DNA of 64,000 nt from Escherichia phage 241. This document shows positions 12,778-17,215 of the stretch, one piece after another. How positions within the stretch are numbered: position 1 is the stretch's first letter; each line of letters starts with the position of its first letter. The DNA lies in the sequence record OR924452; one strand, given 5' to 3'. The position numbers and the translations under genes were made by a program. The notes beneath the pieces were generated by a model that made no database searches, was not told where the DNA came from, and saw only the letters and a program-made list of their open reading frames with translations.

Positions 12778-12815
12778 AATAGACCTCCTTTACAAGTCAG
12801 ATCTATTTATTACAG

Positions 12816-12846
12816 ACAAAAAGAAACCCGATCATCCTGATCGGGC
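12816..12846 (-). terminator. Rho-independent terminator at the end of the tRNA/structured-RNA island
   Basis: Minus strand: CCCGATCAGGATGATCGGG hairpin followed by TTTCTTTTTG. Confidence 0.65.
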
Positions 12847-12902
12847 TATGTTAAACCATCGTGGGGATGGAAAGACTACTCACAGCAATTTCTGATAATG
12901 GG

Positions 12903-12990
12903 CGTTGGGAGAGTGCGTCGGGAATCGAACCCGAAACCGTCAGGACAATGAAAAGCTATTGCATTTCACCTTGCATATCCTCCGGCTTTC
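12903..12990 (-). other. tRNA-like 3' module (T-arm plus acceptor strand plus CCA) without a canonical 5' half
   Basis: T-arm TCGGG-TTCGATT-CCCGA then GCACTCT-C-CCA, but no complementary 5' acceptor strand within 90 nt. Confidence 0.3.
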
Positions 12991-13068
12991 TTAACTTCCT
13001 TAACCCCAGATTGTTATGAAGTCGGCATGCACACCTTCTTCATCTTCAGGAAGTCACACTCATTGTTC

Positions 13069-13144
13069 TGGTTGCTTCAACTGGATTCGAACCAGTGACC
13101 TCTCCCTTATCAGGGGAACGCTCTACCTACTGAGCTATGAAGCA
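13069..13144 (-). tRNA. tRNA-Ile (anticodon GAT), CCA encoded
   Basis: Hand-folded cloverleaf: acceptor TGCTTCA/TGAAGCA, D-arm GCTC-AGTAGGTA-GAGC, anticodon loop CTGATAA, T-arm ACTGG-TTCGAAT-CCAGT, discriminator A plus CCA. Confidence 0.85.
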
Positions 13145-13146
13145 AT

Positions 13147-13215
13147 TTGGTGCCCGTTAGAGGAGTTGAACCTCAGCACTCTGGTGATCAACCCAGAGAG
13201 TCGCGCCTCATCTAT
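13147..13215 (-). other. tRNA-like element with T-arm and a 6-bp stem / 8-nt loop hairpin; not a canonical tRNA
   Basis: GGTTCAACTCC T-loop-like motif and CTCTGG-GTTGATCA-CCAGAG hairpin; no matching acceptor stem found. Confidence 0.25.
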
Positions 13216-13498
13216 TTGATGGTCAATTTGGGTCTTGCAAAACCTTTACTGACCGTCTACAAACAGACTGCTTGACCGAGCGTAATTTGGACGGGCTTCA
13301 CACCCGATTGTGCATTTGATCTGCCGTAGCCCAACTCCCCGCGCCGAAGCGCCGATTGGTTAACTGGCACCAGTGCCTTCTGGTTCGATCTCCTGTAACT
13401 TTACAGGCTTTGCGCCCGACCATTTCTGGAAGTTGAGGCATCGTTTCCGATGTGGAGTCCCCTCATTTTACACAGCTGGCTGCAACGCTTACCGTGTT

Positions 13499-13582
13499 TG
13501 GTGTGAGTGGATGGATTCGAACCACCGCGCTGTTACGGGGAGATTTACAGTCTCCTGCATTCGACCGCTCTGCCACACTCAC
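13499..13582 (-). tRNA. tRNA-Tyr (anticodon GTA), type II with long variable arm, CCA encoded
   Basis: Acceptor GTGAGTG/CACTCAC perfect; D-arm GCA-GAGCGGTCGAA-TGC; anticodon stem GGAGA/TCTCC with loop CTGTAAA; 12-nt variable arm; T-arm GGTGG-TTCGAAT-CCATC. Confidence 0.8.
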
Positions 13583-13588
13583 ATTTAG

Positions 13589-13660
13589 TCTACCGCCGCG
13601 TGCTGGGCCACGCTCGAGGACATCGGCCATCCTTCCTCAGCTAATCCACGCGGCGGTAGA
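13589..13660. repeat. Perfect 14-bp inverted repeat (hairpin, 44-nt loop)
   Basis: TCTACCGCCGCGTG at 13589-13602 pairs with CACGCGGCGGTAGA at 13647-13660. Confidence 0.8.
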
Positions 13661-13826
13661 TTTGGATCAGAGTGTACGGTGTAGCATTCCGCAGGGGTGC
13701 ACCTACTGTAGCCCTTCCACTCTGAAATTGGTGGGTGTTACTTCCGTCGGGTTCAGATTCCGTTCGGCTATTGGACTTCGCTTCAAGAGCTTGTCGTTCG
13801 CGTACTTCGTGCTTACTTGCTTTCGT

Positions 13827-14261
13827 TCACACCCATTGTCTGGTACGTATTTCTTGAATAACTTCGTCAAACAAGAAATCCTTTAACCATTTTACTCCCA
13901 CCACCTGATTATTCTTAGGCGGCGTTACCCTCAATCTAACATTCTTTGGATATTGTTTAGGATCCACCAAGACTTCTGTGCAAGTCTCAGGATGATAGCC
14001 ATAATACAAGTCAACAACATCCGAATGGTAAACCGATTTACATTTACCATTGTAATAATTCGTGGAACTGGCATCAAGAATAAAGGATGCCTTATCTTGT
14101 AAAAGGGTTTTGCATTGTACTTTGTACAAGCGCCCTTCTATATCCAAAACAAAATCATACGGCGCATTATCACCGAAAGGTTGAGAAACTGTTAGCCCCT
14201 GCTCAGTGCATTTGAACAAGAACCTAGTCTCACCTATCATACCCCGTTGTTTCGAATTCAA
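13827..14261 (-). CDS. Hypothetical protein embedded in the RNA island (possible small nuclease; weak)
   Basis: 144-aa ORF; motifs GMIGETRF and YDFVLDIEGRLYKVQCK loosely resemble PD-(D/E)XK nucleases. Confidence 0.45.
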   Translation of the reverse strand: MNSKQRGMIGETRFLFKCTEQGLTVSQPFGDNAPYDFVLDIEGRLYKVQCKTLLQDKASFILDASSTNYYNGKCKSVYHSDVVDLYYGYHPETCTEVLVDPKQYPKNVRLRVTPPKNNQVVGVKWLKDFLFDEVIQEIRTRQWV

Positions 14262-14273
14262 ATTATTCCGCCT

Positions 14274-14894: not shown

Positions 14895-15101
14895 TGTTGT
14901 GTCCAATCAAGGACTGTCAACCTTTTATCCCGTTTGTGCATGATCAGTTCATGCAGGCCTCTTTGTGCGCCTCACAGCAACGCGCTTCTGTAGGTCATTG
15001 ACTTGCACCGTAGTCTCACCACAGGCGTTTATTTTTCCAGGGCTTTCCACTTACAAGTCTTAACCAGATCGGGATACGGGCTTGTAAGATCGGATTGGAC
15101 A

Positions 15102-15179
15102 CAACTTTGATGGCTCTAGGACTAAAGATCCCGCGTCACCCATAGACTTGGTTTATAAAATCTAGAGCCATCAAAGTTG
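15102..15179. repeat. Perfect 18-bp inverted repeat (42-nt loop)
   Basis: CAACTTTGATGGCTCTAG at 15102-15119 pairs with CTAGAGCCATCAAAGTTG at 15162-15179. Confidence 0.85.
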
Positions 15180-15560
15180 CAACCAATGTCGCAACTCGCA
15201 CTTCAGCGTCTTCGTCTCGCTTCAGCACTTGTCCTCTACGTTCGGACCAAACGAGGCTGGCCGACAGAAACATAACACCACTCATCACTAGAGCGAGGAT
15301 GTGGTTGATAGCCACGATGTTACGTCTCTGTCGTAGAGTGATCACACTTGTCAGGATGATCACTGTTTTGCGAACTTGAAAATACTGCGCCTGTCTCGGG
15401 TTTCCCCTTAGTTCGGCCTCTCATTGTTCGTCTGGTCAGGGAGCTACCCTTGATGACCAGCTTATTTTGAGATCTTCGCCAGCACCCACTAGTGTCTAGA
15501 ATATGTAGGTGTCGAGGTCTGCAAGGCATTGCCCTATTTCATACAACGCTCTCTCAAGTG

Positions 15561-15694
15561 CGCAAATCGAAGTTCTCTGGGCTTAACAGGTTCGACCCAA
15601 CATGTTGTATATCGCCTAACTTGCTCATGGGACGGACACATCTGTGTACAGACCTTGAGGGTTAAAAGATATACCCAGAGAACTTCGATTTGCG
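15561..15694. repeat. Perfect 21-bp inverted repeat (92-nt loop)
   Basis: CGCAAATCGAAGTTCTCTGGG at 15561-15581 pairs with CCCAGAGAACTTCGATTTGCG at 15674-15694. Confidence 0.85.
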
Positions 15695-15840
15695 TTGTGG
15701 GGGCAAACCCCCACACGGCCACTTCTTTGACAGGGATTGCCAGCCCTGGGGATTCCACTGTTTAAGGCTTTATCCCATAACGCCTGAGGCGCGTTTTAAC
15801 TTATTGAGCTTGCATAACTGCAAACTGATGCGCTGTGAGA

Positions 15841-15973
15841 CACATCTTTGAGGGCACTCAGTGTACAACAGGCTCCGATATTTCATAGGGCATTACTGCC
15901 TCGGATTTAAGTTGCCTTTCTCCTGAAACTCCATGCAGTCTCGCGTCTGACGCGGAATGCCCTCAAAGATGTG
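15841..15973. repeat. Perfect 16-bp inverted repeat (101-nt loop)
   Basis: CACATCTTTGAGGGCA at 15841-15856 pairs with TGCCCTCAAAGATGTG at 15958-15973. Confidence 0.8.
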
Positions 15974-15975
15974 GA

Positions 15976-16097
15976 GCCGTTTTAGGGAGTCGAACCCAAA
16001 TGCTTGGCCAGCGCTGACCTTACATCCCATCTGACTTAGGCAACCCACCTCTGCTACTCAGGAGCTTATCCCCTTTGGACAGTCAGATATAACGGCT
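15976..16097 (-). other. tRNA-like module: canonical T-arm and acceptor 3' strand, matching 5' strand about 120 nt away
   Basis: GGGTTCGACTCCC T-loop; AAACGGC 3' strand could pair with GCCGTTA at 16091-16097 only if about 45 nt of extra sequence is inserted. Confidence 0.25.
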
Positions 16098-16098
16098 T

Positions 16099-16167
16099 TG
16101 GGATTGGAGGAAGGACTCGAACCTTCTCATGTACGCTCCTGATTTCTCAGAAGTAGCCTGCTCCCAT
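16099..16167 (-). other. 69-nt tRNA-like element: acceptor stem, perfect T-arm, encoded CCA, non-canonical core
   Basis: ATGGGAG/CTCCAAT acceptor (one mismatch), T-arm GAAGG-TTCGAGT-CCTTC, discriminator C plus CCA; no recognisable D or anticodon arm. Confidence 0.3.
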
Positions 16168-16512
16168 CGACCTATTAAGTACACGCTCCGCTCATTGTTC
16201 GGCGGGAGCTTATTAATCACACCCTCCCACCTATTGTTAGTGCGCCGAATTTTGTTATGAGGAATCGGAAGACCTCACTGACTTATAGGCTATTACGCCG
16301 CCATCAGAACTTCGGAATCATTAGCAGTTATTTGCTTGGTCAGTTTCTAAAAACCCGCAAAGTCACGCACAACGAAAACGAAAACCTGTTTGAGTCCTAA
16401 ACCTACCTGTCTTGGTCTCACATCGATATGAGTGGCCAGGACTCAAACAGCTTGCCGTTCAGTGAGTTAACTATACTTTGTAACCCGTTATTGATAAAAC
16501 CTTTTATTTTGT

Positions 16513-16606
16513 TGGCGAGGGTGTGGAATCGAACCACACTTCTGAGCGCTACCCCGTGTCACCACCTCACCATCGATTTGCCGGAACTTACGCATCCGGC
16601 CTCGCC
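16513..16606 (-). other. 94-nt tRNA-like element: perfect 7-bp acceptor stem and canonical T-arm, aberrant D/anticodon region
   Basis: GGCGAGG/CCTCGCC acceptor; T-arm TGTGG-TTCGATT-CCACA; internal hairpin CCGGA-TGCGTAAGT-TCCGG; no clear anticodon stem-loop. Confidence 0.3.
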
Positions 16607-17011
16607 TGTTGGCGCTCCTAAAATCCGGGAAGACAGTAGGAACAATTATGTTACCAACAGGAACCTTGTTGCCCTTTGACGCAACATTATGAACCCTCTG
16701 TGGAAGACTCATAATGTTGTCGGCGTAATGGAGATTAGCGCCCCCGACCTCCCCTTATATGTTGGTGTCGACTTGCCAACAGGGTGCTCTCTGATTCTGA
16801 GCTAATCACGCTACAACAGGGAGTTTCGTTCTCCGACGGTCAAGTGCGTCCACTGACACCAGCGAGGTGGATATTGACTTATGGAGCCGGAGTCCTCGTC
16901 CTAGGACTGTGCTTGGCCTCAGCCTTTACACCGCTGGTCGCCCGACTCTTTACACCATAAAATTTACTATACTACAGCCCAGCTAATTTGAAAAGTCCTC
17001 TCCCCTTTGAG

Positions 17012-17158
17012 CTACACTGCCCACAGCAGTGCGGACGAACCTTCACTCAAAACCGGATGCGCCGAAGTGGGCAACTGTTTACCGGACTGATCGGGTAGAC
17101 CCAGGAGAGAGCAGGTAATCCCGATCAGGAGGATGAGGAGTAACATCATGTAAAACAT
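17012..17158 (-). CDS. Small hydrophobic peptide (48 aa), not in the ORF track
   Basis: Strong RBS GGGAGGG 6 nt before the ATG; translation MFYMMLLLILLIGITCSLLGLPDQSGKQLPTSAHPVLSEGSSALLWAV. Confidence 0.35.
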   Translation of the reverse strand: MFYMMLLLILLIGITCSLLGLPDQSGKQLPTSAHPVLSEGSSALLWAV

Positions 17159-17215
17159 AGTGTTCCCTCCCTTCCATGCAACTAACTTTACTGCATTTAT
17201 TTATTGAATAAAGCG

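Follow-up and report, generated by a model that had tools for sequence, protein, structure and literature searches.

The window analysed here, a stretch of 64,000 nucleotides (nt) of Escherichia phage 241 (sequence record OR924452), contains between positions 12,800 and 17,215 an island poor in open reading frames (ORFs) around three tRNA genes, which is very likely a minus-strand array of functional structured RNAs. One of its elements, located at 16196..16393 (-), resembles the messenger part of transfer-messenger RNA (tmRNA) and contains a start-less frame of ten codons that is probably translated; this module is supported by cross-phage homologues, tag statistics, a covariation test, and sub-threshold matches to Rfam tmRNA models. 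It is the most informative element of the island and had escaped the initial reading, as had the homing-type endonuclease gene in the place of tRNA-Asn and the gain and loss of cassettes among close relatives. As a whole, a stable-RNA array that includes a tmRNA-like tag module is the explanation favoured here, with moderate confidence. All island features discussed below lie on the minus strand.

A megablast search with region 12800-17215 matched 310 phage records, with Salmonella phage PS5 as the top match (96.7% identity), followed by ECML-4, Mooltan, Vi01, and other members of the genus Kuttervirus. The source phage of the island is a Kuttervirus (Ackermannviridae, ViI/CBA120-like).

The tag frame of the tmRNA-like module

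In the tag frame, AAUAACU is followed by GCU AAU GAU UCC GAA GUU CUG AUG GCG GCG UAA UAG, encoding the tag ANDSEVLMAA (16325-16296), with GCU (16325-16323) as the resume codon and UAA UAG (16295-16290) as stop codons. For comparison, E. coli ssrA reads AAUAGUC GCA AAC GAC GAA AAC UAC GCU UUA GCA GCU UAA UAA and encodes ANDENYALAA. A blastn search with 14668-17215 revealed that 16239-16379 matches unannotated DNA of unrelated phages at 71-82% identity, namely 47-kb siphophages (Caminolopintovirus STGO-35-1 and Klebsiella phages) and 72-kb N4-like podophages (Ithacavirus FSL SP-058 and Shigella phage B2), and the cross-phage alignment reads AUAAAU GCA AAC GAU GAU GUU GUU CUG AUG GCG GCG UAA UAG. 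Scanning IMG/VR with a sequence pattern gave at least 120 loci, which, together with the loci found earlier, provided 90 distinct cores for alignment. Indeed, all 90 cores possess exactly ten codons followed by a stop codon (UAA in 88 of them), with AN[DE]x x[FVYMI]L[AM][VA]A as the tag consensus among homologues. The entropy at codon positions 1, 2, and 3 of the 90 tags amounted to 0.57, 0.44, and 1.03 bits, respectively; all four GCN codons are used for the last alanine, and Leu7 is encoded by CUG or UUG. An in-frame UAG stands eight codons before the resume codon; the stretch between the two has no ATG, GTG, or TTG start codon, and one group of homologues carries a 1-nt insertion upstream of the resume codon. 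Together with the codon variation, this indicates that the frame starts at the GCN codon and that selection acts on the peptide. All elements of a tmRNA messenger domain, i.e., a start-less frame from a resume codon, a tag ending in hydrophobic residues and alanine, and a stop codon, were found in the module. Ribosomes very probably read the tag frame by trans-translation, because the variation among the homologues points to selection on the encoded peptide. Upstream of the tag, the motif GCGACUUUGCGG is nearly invariant; no partner was identified for it.

Pseudoknots, covariation, and model matches

A stop-codon helix (CUGA 16307-16304 with UCAG 16281-16278) and two H-type pseudoknots were located in the module. 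In pseudoknot a, UGAGG (16277-16273) pairs with CCUCA (16262-16258), and the loop CCGA (16268-16265) pairs with UCGG (16248-16245). In pseudoknot b, the pairing of CGCAC (16244-16240) with GUGUG (16222-16218) crosses a hairpin at 16231-16201. Over the 90 sequences, 98.0% of the cells of these helices were paired, versus 87.3% in column shuffles and 32-46% in slid controls. Compensatory change was seen in 11 of the 22 module pairs, with 233 cells changed on both sides compared with 62 in the shuffles, and none of 500 shuffles reached the observed covariation score. For example, the loop pairing of pseudoknot a changes across homologues from CCGA/UCGG to CCAG/CUGG and CCAA/UUGG, and the X-Y pair in GCAXUG..GYUGUG is C-G, G-C, or U-A. 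In addition, a G·U pair between alignment columns 164 and 193 occurs in all 90 sequences, which fits an RNA of the module's strand. Pseudoknots and a stop-codon helix around the messenger domain, as in tmRNA, are present downstream of the tag; an upstream pseudoknot equivalent to PK1 was not established, an invariant GUUUU/GAAAC being the only pairing possible there.

The 14-nt loop GGUGUGAUUAAUAA of the hairpin 16231-16201 (alignment columns 189-202) is nearly invariant, with a stem that differs completely from one lineage to the next; since the last 12 nt of this loop were fixed by the search pattern that gathered most loci, its invariance is partly circular. The loop contains UGA and tandem UAA UAA in two frames, and no partner was identified.

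The permuted, alpha-, and beta-type tmRNA models of Rfam align the tag and resume context of three phage copies, with scores of 21.5 bits for this phage, 29.4 bits for STGO-35-1, and 28.9 bits for FSL SP-058 (E ~5e-4 in small searches).

Distribution and genomic context of the module

Carriers of the 90 distinct homologues are Ackermannviridae, N4-like and T1-like phages, and lambdoid prophages. The module was found in 159 of 5,426 complete E. coli genomes, such as that of O26:H11 11368, where NCBI annotates nothing at this position. Among 100,044 species-representative genomes, the only carriers were Pseudocitrobacter faecalis and Pantoea agglomerans, the other 14 pattern matches being chance occurrences without the tag. 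Of the tRNA genes in 122 distinct contexts, 127 share the strand of the module and two are on the opposite one, and a tRNA gene is located within 1.5 kb of the module in 31 of the 74 loci with enough flanking sequence.

The surroundings of the module differ among the carriers. In the T1-like phages, a good sigma-70 promoter (TTGACA-17-TAGATT) lies directly upstream of the module and a tRNA-Met gene about 450 nt downstream. In the lambdoid prophages, the module is flanked by the late terminator tR' and the holin gene S and would thus be part of the late (pR') transcript, a position that links it to lysis-phase gene expression. Shiga toxin (Stx) phages use this slot, the leader of the late transcript, for tRNA and toxin genes. 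The FSL SP-058 copy of the module has an intrinsic terminator behind it. In the record of this phage (NC_021772.1; locus L005), the tRNA coordinates of the feature table are about 1.1 kb off the ARAGORN positions, and one annotated coding sequence (CDS) overlaps two annotated tRNAs.

Downstream of the module, the lambdoid and T1-like loci have first a conserved stem module (CACAACAGGUAAGAGCAUU .. AGUGCUCUUUCC) and then a tRNA-like domain with GUUGUGGUG/CACCACAAC as its closing helix. At about 0-800 nt past the module, loci L060, L114, L116, L064, and L024 carry cassette arrays bounded by CACAACAGGTAAGAGCATT, AGTGCTCTTTCCGTTGTGGTG, and CACCACAAC, boundary strings for which local or long-range pairing is possible. 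The cassette bodies are variable, some of them being tRNA-like with D-arm and T-arm sequences.

The downstream tRNA-like domain and the missing alanine domain

A tmRNA requires a tRNA-like domain that is charged with alanine via a G3·U70 pair. A tRNA-like domain is found downstream of the module in the Ackermannviridae, lambdoid, and T1-like contexts. Its closing helix GUUGUGGUG/CACCACAAC covaries locally, as it is replaced by GUUGUGCUG/CAGCACAAC and GUUGUGGCC/GGUCACAAC, indicating a self-closing domain with the tag module on its 5' side. In Kuttervirus, the units 16193-16099 and/or 16097-15972 come after the module and place an encoded CCA 226-260 nt past the resume codon; this distance is 273 nt in E. 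coli tmRNA. The constant partnership between the module and a tRNA-like unit is suggestive.

Several observations weigh against a stable-RNA array with a tmRNA-like tag module. No alanine-type tRNA-like domain (G3·U70) was found beside any module copy, the 3:70 pairs of the flanking tRNA-like units being C3-G70, U3·G70, or U3-A70, or an internal mismatch occurring there. With default settings, ARAGORN returned no true tmRNA in this phage's stretch or in the 122 contexts, although the E. coli control was detected, and the module scores below the Rfam gathering thresholds (21.5-29.4 bits for RF04321, threshold 47; 18.1 bits for RF01850, threshold 84; 19 bits for RF01849, threshold 50). At thresholds of 90-95%, ARAGORN called a 389-nt one-piece tmRNA with the true tag in lambdoid locus L114; its T arm comes from the downstream tRNA-like domain and its 3:70 pair is U-A. 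At 85%, 40 calls with the true tag were accompanied by 77 false ones. Furthermore, FSL SP-058 has no tRNA-like domain after the module, the promoter of the T1-like phages leaves no space for a 5' acceptor strand, and RNase P is expected to cut the module from the downstream tRNA-like domain. For the island at large, all RNAs are inferred from the DNA sequence, the perfect repeats that behave as insertions or deletions (indels) could be mobile DNA rather than selected RNA, and any function assigned to the tRNA-like and hairpin cassettes is conjectural.

Various ways of supplying the missing domain were considered and rejected. The sole default ARAGORN tmRNA call, at 3200-3574 of locus L043, is a false positive that draws on the 3' half of a tRNA-Met and yields a nonsense tag; in this call, GGGCACA after the second pseudoknot pairs with the 3' acceptor strand of the downstream tRNA-Met, giving G3·U70. 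A permuted two-piece tmRNA with unit 16606-16513 as acceptor was discarded, as this unit closes on its own 5' strand; no complementary strand was found between this unit and the tag module, ARAGORN support being restricted to a call with the -ps80 option. A one-piece topology via an upstream acceptor strand offers possible pairings, namely GCUGUUU with AAACGGC in Kuttervirus and GUUGUGG with CCACAAC in one lambdoid group, but the strands have local partners and the local closure downstream covaries. A histidine-type identity (G-1:C73 plus CCA) of unit 16193-16099 was dismissed too, since the 5' strand proposed for it is not conserved in the Taipeivirus variant, which favours another helix with two compensatory changes. 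Finally, pairing of the module with the host tmRNA was not supported, as RNAduplex gave -98 kcal/mol against E. coli ssrA and a shuffle mean of -102.6.

Conservation and structure of the island

In the genomes of relatives, a tail-needle-knob gene is located on one side of the island and a conserved gene encoding 189 amino acids (aa), divergent from that of baseplate wedge gp6, on the other. The G+C content is 0.47-0.55 within the island versus 0.38-0.45 in the flanks. The scarcity of ORFs reported by the initial annotation holds, as no further ORF is supported in 14668-17011, and PS5 and ECML-4 have essentially nothing annotated over about 2.5 kb upstream of tRNA-Met.

For cross-genus comparison, loci of six other Ackermannviridae lineages were used, namely XDRKpn-1 and IME250 (Taipeivirus), RPN242 (Aglimvirinae), LIMEstone1 (Limestonevirus), 2050H1 (Miltonvirus), and Enterobacter phage fGh-Ecl02. 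Several non-coding segments turned out to be 88-98% identical across phage genera, versus 68-82% for the flanking CDSs. This is the case for blocks 15961-16096 (97.1%) and 13283-13500 (91.4%) in IME250, where the flanking CDSs are 74-76% identical, and for blocks 13162-13325 (92.7%), 14670-14782 (90.3%), and 14891-15111 (89.2%) in LIMEstone1, where the flanking CDSs are 68-74% identical. RNAalifold was run on the homologues of each block, and compensatory pairs and unpaired cells were counted. Most island modules displayed compensatory pairs and almost no broken ones, counts that, coming from few and related sequences, are supportive but short of conclusive. For example, block 14776-14898 has 44 pairs, five of them compensatory, and 0 of 176 cells unpaired; block 15088-15195 has 26 pairs (four compensatory; 0 of 234 cells unpaired), block 15366-15560 has 43 (15 compensatory; 5 of 602), and block 13583-13830 has 52 (five compensatory; 8 of 416). 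The compensatory helices and the conservation contrast with the CDSs together exclude a decayed gene or a neutral spacer. Hence, the structured-RNA island that had been proposed around the tRNA genes is borne out by segments conserved above the neighbouring protein genes and by helices with compensatory changes, and the comparison with related phages, suggested at the same time as a check for covariation, revealed such changes in the predicted helices.

Apart from tRNA, no known RNA family (Y RNA, ROOL, GOLLD, ribozymes, riboswitches, or small RNAs) was found in the island at the Rfam gathering thresholds; at E values up to 10, only chance-level microRNA or small nucleolar RNA matches to hairpins appeared, and no ROOL, GOLLD, or Y RNA. 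A scan of the island for sigma-70 promoters gave matches no commoner than in shuffles. In the searchable literature, no transcript data for Kuttervirus were found. Likewise, no description of the module or of the Ackermannviridae non-coding region was found in the open-access full-text literature, and an earlier description is possible. In Salmonella phage SM5, the non-coding region is annotated as 'helicase RecD/TraA family' and 'reverse transcriptase domain-containing protein', and 'Pseudomonas phage Pa-sanjiao', with PAO1 as listed host, is a 158-kb Kuttervirus that is 92% identical to the island region. The host name of the latter and the SM5 annotations (records MN871475.1 and OM681507.1) look like labelling or annotation errors.

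tRNA-like units

Five tRNA-like units were located, in agreement with the at least five tRNA-like 3' modules anticipated from the initial reading. In each, an acceptor-like 3' strand comes after a canonical T arm of the GGTTCGAnTCC type (3' parts at 12934-12907, 13178-13148, 15997-15972, 16126-16099, and 16539-16513), and CCA is encoded in three of the five. They score below the tRNA model, with local T-arm matches in Rfam or none; only the Ile, Tyr, and Met genes give a cloverleaf with an anticodon loop that passes the threshold of the tRNA model. Since the units lack anticodon loops, any decoy action of theirs would be limited to enzymes that act at the acceptor and T-arm end.

tRNA-like RNA 1 (12907..13061), which is rnaC-like, has an acceptor helix GAGUGUG/CGCACUC, two internal arms, a T arm UCGGG-UUCGAUU-CCCGA, and a 3' tail UCCC, with the leader motif ACAAU in front and the motif ACAATGAG at its 5' edge (13066-13059). 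A local Rfam tmRNA/T-arm match occurs at 12919-12933, and its seven distinct homologues gave 53 pairs with 0 of 371 cells unpaired. tRNA-like RNA 2 (13148..13281) is a tRNA-Ser derivative with an acceptor GCUCG/CGGGC, A73, and encoded CCA. Indeed, it aligns with the real tRNA-Ser that ECML-4 and PM10 have beside tRNA-Ile; the anticodon arm is gone (a 4-nt deletion including GCU), and a variable-arm-like hairpin and the T arm GAGG-UUCAACU-CCUC are retained. PS5 carries the same kind of derivative as this phage, and the LIMEstone1 copy is 92.7% identical, compared with 68-74% for the flanking CDSs there. tRNA-like RNA 3 ('module G'; 15972..16097), again rnaC-like, consists of an acceptor AGCCGUU/AACGGCU, a long arm, a GCGC-capped arm, a T arm GGG-UUCGACU-CCC, and encoded CCA. 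Of all pieces of the island, this unit is the best conserved (96-98% identity in PM10, RPN242, and IME250, versus 74-82% for the flanking CDSs), and 0 of 533 cells were unpaired over its 41 pairs.

tRNA-like RNA 4 (16099..16193) is an optional cassette that is not present in PM10, RPN242, and IME250. It contains a helix GAGCGGAG/CUCCAAUC, a helix CGUGUAC/GUACAUG, a GAAA-capped hairpin in the place of the anticodon arm, a T arm GAAGG-UUCGAGU-CCUUC, and encoded CCA; compared with the Taipeivirus variant, the helix CGUGUAC/GUACAUG shows two compensatory changes and the T stem covaries. tRNA-like RNA 5 (16513..16606) has an acceptor GGCGAGG/CCUCGCC, a hairpin CCGGA..UCCGG, A73, and a T arm GUGUGG-UUCGAUU-CCACAC with a local Rfam T-arm match, CCA not being encoded. 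At its position (-185 to -189 from the tag module), PS5-type phages carry a different tRNA-like variant. Further upstream (16750-16830), GUAGCGUGAUUAGCUCAGAAUCAGAGAGCA resembles a tRNA acceptor strand and D arm without a called matching T arm, and this may be a sixth tRNA-derived unit.

The sequence ACAAUGAG occurs in three minus-strand copies in the island, versus about 0.1 expected, each at the 5' edge of a unit, and looks like a shared leader or processing context. The copies of (G)AACAAUGAG at 13059-13066, 15420-15427, and 16191-16198 each border a tRNA-like or structured unit on its 5' side, and a related CCAAUGAGAG is found after the tmRNA-like module in some lambdoid prophages (L024 and L096).

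Folding of the units 13061-12907, 13281-13148, and 16097-15972 yields four parts, namely an acceptor-like outer helix, a long arm, a further hairpin, and a canonical T arm beside the 3' strand. T4 rnaC (species 1; 139 nt), folded in the same way, adopts this four-part shape too, with a T arm CCGGG-UUCGAAU-CCCGG. The likeness to T4 small stable RNAs that had been noticed before is thus recovered at the level of architecture, for three units. Based on these predicted folds, the three units of rnaC design may be read as tRNA-scaffolded RNAs.

Hairpin cassettes, other structured modules, and mosaicism

Perfect inverted repeats occur at 14780-14801/14873-14894 (22 nt), 15561-15581/15674-15694 (21 nt), and 13589-13602/13647-13660 (14 nt), and imperfect ones (86-88% over 22-26 nt, with perfect cores) at 15094-15119/15162-15187, 15841-15864/15950-15973, and 16377-16398/16438-16459. 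The five perfect inverted repeats of 14-22 bp claimed initially are real as repeats; three are perfect and three others are of 86-88%. A perfect repeat of 21-22 nt within 100 nt is far above chance (~4^-21 per position pair), and the hairpin folds gave z-scores of -5.1 to -9.9 against dinucleotide shuffles.

Five hairpin cassettes were distinguished. Cassette I3 (14780..14894; z -9.9; covered by block 14776-14898 above) has a 22-bp perfect stem over a two-hairpin junction. It behaves as an indel, being not present in PM10, RPN242, IME250, and LIMEstone1, and has AATT on both sides. As regards a miniature inverted-repeat mobile element, I3 has 22-bp perfect ends, AATT on both sides, and indel behaviour; solo arm-like copies are all that occurs elsewhere in the 64 kb, and the stem covaries in the manner of an RNA helix. 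Its arm motif ATTGCTGTGGGTAGT is found at 14787-14801 and 14873-14887 and, as solo copies with one or two mismatches, at both island edges, just before the terminator (12875-12889) and just after the gene of a 48-aa peptide (17016-17030). In the 64 kb, ATTGCTGTGGGTAGT has seven matches versus 1.46 expected, and it could be a boundary, processing, or recombination signal. Cassette I2 (15094..15187; z -6.3; block 15088-15195) has a stem of about 20 bp, and cassette I4 (15561..15694; z -7.9) a 21-bp perfect stem with a two-hairpin junction and 52 pairs, five of which are compensatory. Cassette I5 (15841..15973; z -5.1) has 43 pairs (three compensatory). Cassette I6 (16377..16459; z -5.7; 26 pairs, three compensatory) abuts the 5' end of the tmRNA-like module, a position where other phages have a conserved stem module or a promoter.

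Between these cassettes and the tRNA genes, further conserved structured modules were recognized. The module between tRNA-like RNA 2 and tRNA-Tyr (13283..13498) is 91-93% identical across genera, with 59 pairs (four compensatory). The module at 13583..13826, which holds the 14-bp perfect hairpin 13589-13660, is 88-91% identical in LIMEstone1 and fGh-Ecl02, with its long stem changing from UCUACCGCCGCGUG/CACGCGGCGGUAGA to UCUACCACCGCGUG/CACGUGGUGGUAGA. The one upstream of tRNA-Met (14668..14782; 28 pairs, three compensatory) is 90% identical in Klebsiella phage XDRKpn-1 and Dickeya phage LIMEstone1, and that at 14895..15092 (51 pairs, eight compensatory) is 79-89% identical over five genera, including Serratia phage 2050H1. 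Two structured modules are located at 15196..15560, one with a 36-nt core (15227-15261) that is 94% conserved and the other, 15366-15560, with a ACAAUGAG leader at 15427-15420. At the 5' end of the island, structured non-coding sequence (16620..17010) has 17 distinct homologues with a mean identity of 90% and 45 pairs (two compensatory). Part of this arrangement is mosaic, as blocks 14783-14890, 15696-15840, and 16097-16198 are present, absent, or swapped among close relatives; the variable cassette 15696..15840, for instance, is replaced by other sequence in ECML-4 and PM10.

tRNA genes, protein genes, and terminator

ARAGORN and Rfam each return exactly three tRNA genes, tRNA-Ile (GAT; 13069..13144; Rfam 72.7 bits), tRNA-Tyr (GTA; 13499..13582), and tRNA-Met (CAT; 14592..14667), in line with the three canonical tRNAs recognized beforehand. 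The terminator at the island boundary was located as well, at 12825..12847; it has a 10-bp stem with five G-C pairs followed by the T run TCTTTTTGTC and forms the 3' close of the RNA array.

The protein genes of 144, 74, and 48 aa that had been considered plausible were all upheld. The 144-aa gene (13827..14261) encodes a PD-(D/E)XK endonuclease of the homing-endonuclease type (PF11645; E 1.6e-25), the match spanning 137 of 138 profile positions. The segment with this gene (13731-14273) stands where PS5 and ECML-4, which lack the endonuclease, have a 185-nt tRNA-Asn segment, and PM10 has an endonuclease homologue and tRNA-Asn side by side. Both the sporadic presence among close relatives and the PF11645 domain, as expected of a homing endonuclease in a tRNA cluster, were thus found, and the gene looks like a free-standing homing endonuclease that would have removed the tRNA-Asn gene. 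The idea of tRNAs split by group I introns, raised by the likeness of the endonuclease to I-Ssp6803I, was rejected, as no intron model matched at E values up to 10 and the segment downstream of the endonuclease gene is conserved in phages without that gene too. The 74-aa gene (14274..14498) encodes a conserved phage protein (phrog_3684; E 3e-27) that is annotated as a CDS in relatives. The 48-aa gene (17012..17158) encodes a hydrophobic peptide that matches phrog_8415 over its full length (E 2.5e-33); it is preceded by GGAGGG and annotated in PM10 and fGh-Ecl02.

Eight ORFs of 69-83 aa in 14668-17011 were scanned as extra protein genes, none of which is credible. ORF 15136-15363 has a strong match to phrog_23307 (E 3.9e-44), but only the 36-nt core is kept in Taipeivirus, so that it is not conserved as a protein; phrog_23307 was probably built from ORFs over-called in non-coding RNA sequence. 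A second ORF, with a partial PHROG match of 15 residues (E 1.1e-05), was discounted.

Alternative explanations

Instead of serving as a working template, the module may be a decoy: by binding SmpB, ribosomal protein S1, or stalled ribosomes, it would block host trans-translation in infected cells. The missing alanine-type domain would fit this, the loop GGUGUGAUUAAUAA and the motif GCGACUUUGCGG look like binding sites, and the tmRNA fragment of mycobacteriophage DS6A, which consists of the tRNA-like domain alone, was suggested to inhibit tmRNA by SmpB titration (PMC4131195). A decoy is nevertheless unlikely, as the third-position variation, the use of all four codons for the last alanine, and the fixed length of ten codons plus stop in 90 of 90 cores indicate selection on the peptide, which a pure decoy would not need. 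Passive carriage of a bacterial ssrA fragment, picked up by imprecise prophage excision, is suggested by the many lambdoid prophages among the carriers, by the frequent integration of prophages into ssrA, and by reported ssrA fragments in prophages (PMC9004378). Integration into ssrA, however, duplicates its 3' end and not the tag region, no extended nucleotide similarity to E. coli ssrA was found beyond the tag context, and the module also occurs in strictly lytic phage families. Given, in addition, the purifying selection and covariation over 90 variants and the two Enterobacterales carriers among the species-representative genomes, such an origin is extremely improbable.

Concerning the island as a whole, a graveyard of decayed tRNA genes or a decayed coding region, kept by chance or recent descent, would account for the derivation of one module from tRNA-Ser by loss of the anticodon arm, for the loss of tRNA-Asn from this phage and the different tRNA content of its relatives, and for the PHROGs family of ORF 15136-15363. 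The non-coding modules, however, are conserved far above the adjacent genes across genera, their helices stay paired through compensatory changes, and the ORF is reduced to its core in Taipeivirus, which makes decay very unlikely. A role of the repeats and cassette boundaries as DNA, be it as mobile hairpin elements, recombination linkers, or endonuclease targets, agrees with the clean indels at 14783-14890, 16097-16198, and 15696-15840 among close relatives, with the perfect 22-bp ends of I3 between AATT sequences, with the recurrence of ATTGCTGTGGGTAGT at both island edges, with the common conserved linkers of the lambdoid and T1-like arrays (CACAACAGGTAAGAGCATT, then AGTGCTCTTTCCGTTGTGGTG), and with the homing-type endonuclease gene within the island. 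Yet, the stems stay paired via compensatory changes at 81-86% identity without broken pairs, they enclose conserved multi-hairpin junctions, and all units lie on the tRNA strand, so that DNA-level action as the sole explanation appears improbable. Both views are compatible, as mobile cassettes can encode RNAs.

Proposed mechanism and implications

In the favoured explanation, the island would be transcribed as one or a few precursors that end at the terminator 12847-12825 and that would be cut into units by host tRNA-processing and double-strand RNases, with the tRNA-like ends and the 20-bp stems as cutting signals. The resulting array would comprise ordinary tRNAs, tRNA-like RNAs, long-stem cassettes that come and go, and the tmRNA-like messenger module, the tRNA-like units possibly serving as scaffolds that stabilize and process variable RNA bodies. 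The module itself would provide a start-less frame from an alanine codon for the ten-residue, SsrA-like degradation tag ANDSEVLMAA, with which the phage may tag the proteins of stalled ribosomes late in infection. Ribosome delivery would occur through an adjacent non-alanine tRNA-like domain or through the host tmRNA-SmpB system. In the former case, the tRNA-like unit after the module (16193-16099 or 16097-15972; the self-closing domain in lambdoid and T1-like loci) would deliver the ribosome, giving a tmRNA with its messenger part 5' of the tRNA-like part and not inside it; this route is put forward tentatively.

It is conceivable, if rather doubtful, that enterobacterial phages and prophages carry a new class of trans-translation RNA with its template outside the alanine domain, the tRNA-scaffolded cassettes being an exchangeable toolkit. 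The carriers of this class would be Ackermannviridae, N4-like and T1-like phages, and lambdoid prophages of enterohaemorrhagic E. coli (EHEC) O26, and the template might be either a 5' extension of a self-closing tRNA-like domain with another identity or a means to reprogramme the host tmRNA-SmpB system in trans. If so, the phage would choose the tag that is put on the products of stalled ribosomes. tmRNA is considered almost universal among bacteria and uniform in structure; a peptide-selected tag module without an alanine-type domain poses the question of how the ribosome enters the frame. This question is easy to test, since the carriers infect E. coli, Salmonella, and Klebsiella and include well-studied phage groups. 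Furthermore, conserved, covarying RNA units occupy about 2.5 kb that the annotations of hundreds of Ackermannviridae genomes leave blank. The puzzle of the T4 species 1 and 2 RNAs, now 50 years old, is thereby extended to other phage families, and the island units offer comparative material toward what T4-like small stable RNAs do.

Comparison with known systems

The T4 species 1 and species 2 RNAs (rnaC and rnaD), whose function is unknown, resemble the island units as RNAs of 120-140 nt beside tRNA genes on the same strand, and the T4 tRNA cluster also has a homing endonuclease gene (segB) inside. The likeness to rnaC is one of shape only, as no sequence similarity to the Kuttervirus units was detected and there is no curated family model; unlike the T4 cluster, the Kuttervirus island has more such units, plus hairpin cassettes and the tmRNA-like module. 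GOLLD, ROOL, and YrlA Y RNAs are structured phage, prophage, or bacterial RNAs beside tRNA genes or with tRNA-like domains too, but the relaxed Rfam search of the island (E up to 10) gave no match to them.

With tmRNA, the module shares a ten-residue tag that ends in hydrophobic residues and alanine before UAA, the lack of a start codon, a helix that spans the stop codon, pseudoknots downstream of the tag, and the sub-threshold alignment to three Rfam models. It also resembles the coding piece of the permuted two-piece tmRNAs of alpha- and betaproteobacteria (RF04321, RF01849, and RF01850) in AUAA(A/C)U followed by GCN AAY GAN. In contrast with tmRNA, no tRNA-like domain with G3·U70 and ACCA is joined to the module in one-piece or permuted order, the nearest tRNA-like domain being self-closing and 3' of the module; the module is not called by default ARAGORN or at Rfam gathering, and Enterobacterales phages and prophages are the only carriers found.

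In an exhaustive survey of 2014, phage ssrA was restricted to mycobacteriophages, Bacillus phage G, and DS6A (PMC4131195). An ARAGORN survey of 2022 reported tmRNA for 402 of 18,146 phage genomes, the two-piece forms being mostly those of marine phages (PMC9004378). Both surveys depend on detection of the tRNA-like domain, so that a module of the present type would have gone uncounted. The known phage tmRNAs (Bxz1 group, phage G, DS6A, and marine myophages with two-piece ssrA) are phage-borne and often near tRNA genes, as is the module, but they are complete genes detectable by ARAGORN or, in DS6A, a tRNA-like domain alone. The phage families that carry the module are not on the lists of known phage tmRNA carriers. 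A phage tmRNA-like tag module without a recognisable alanine domain, widespread in enterobacterial phages, represents the opposite partial form to that of DS6A.

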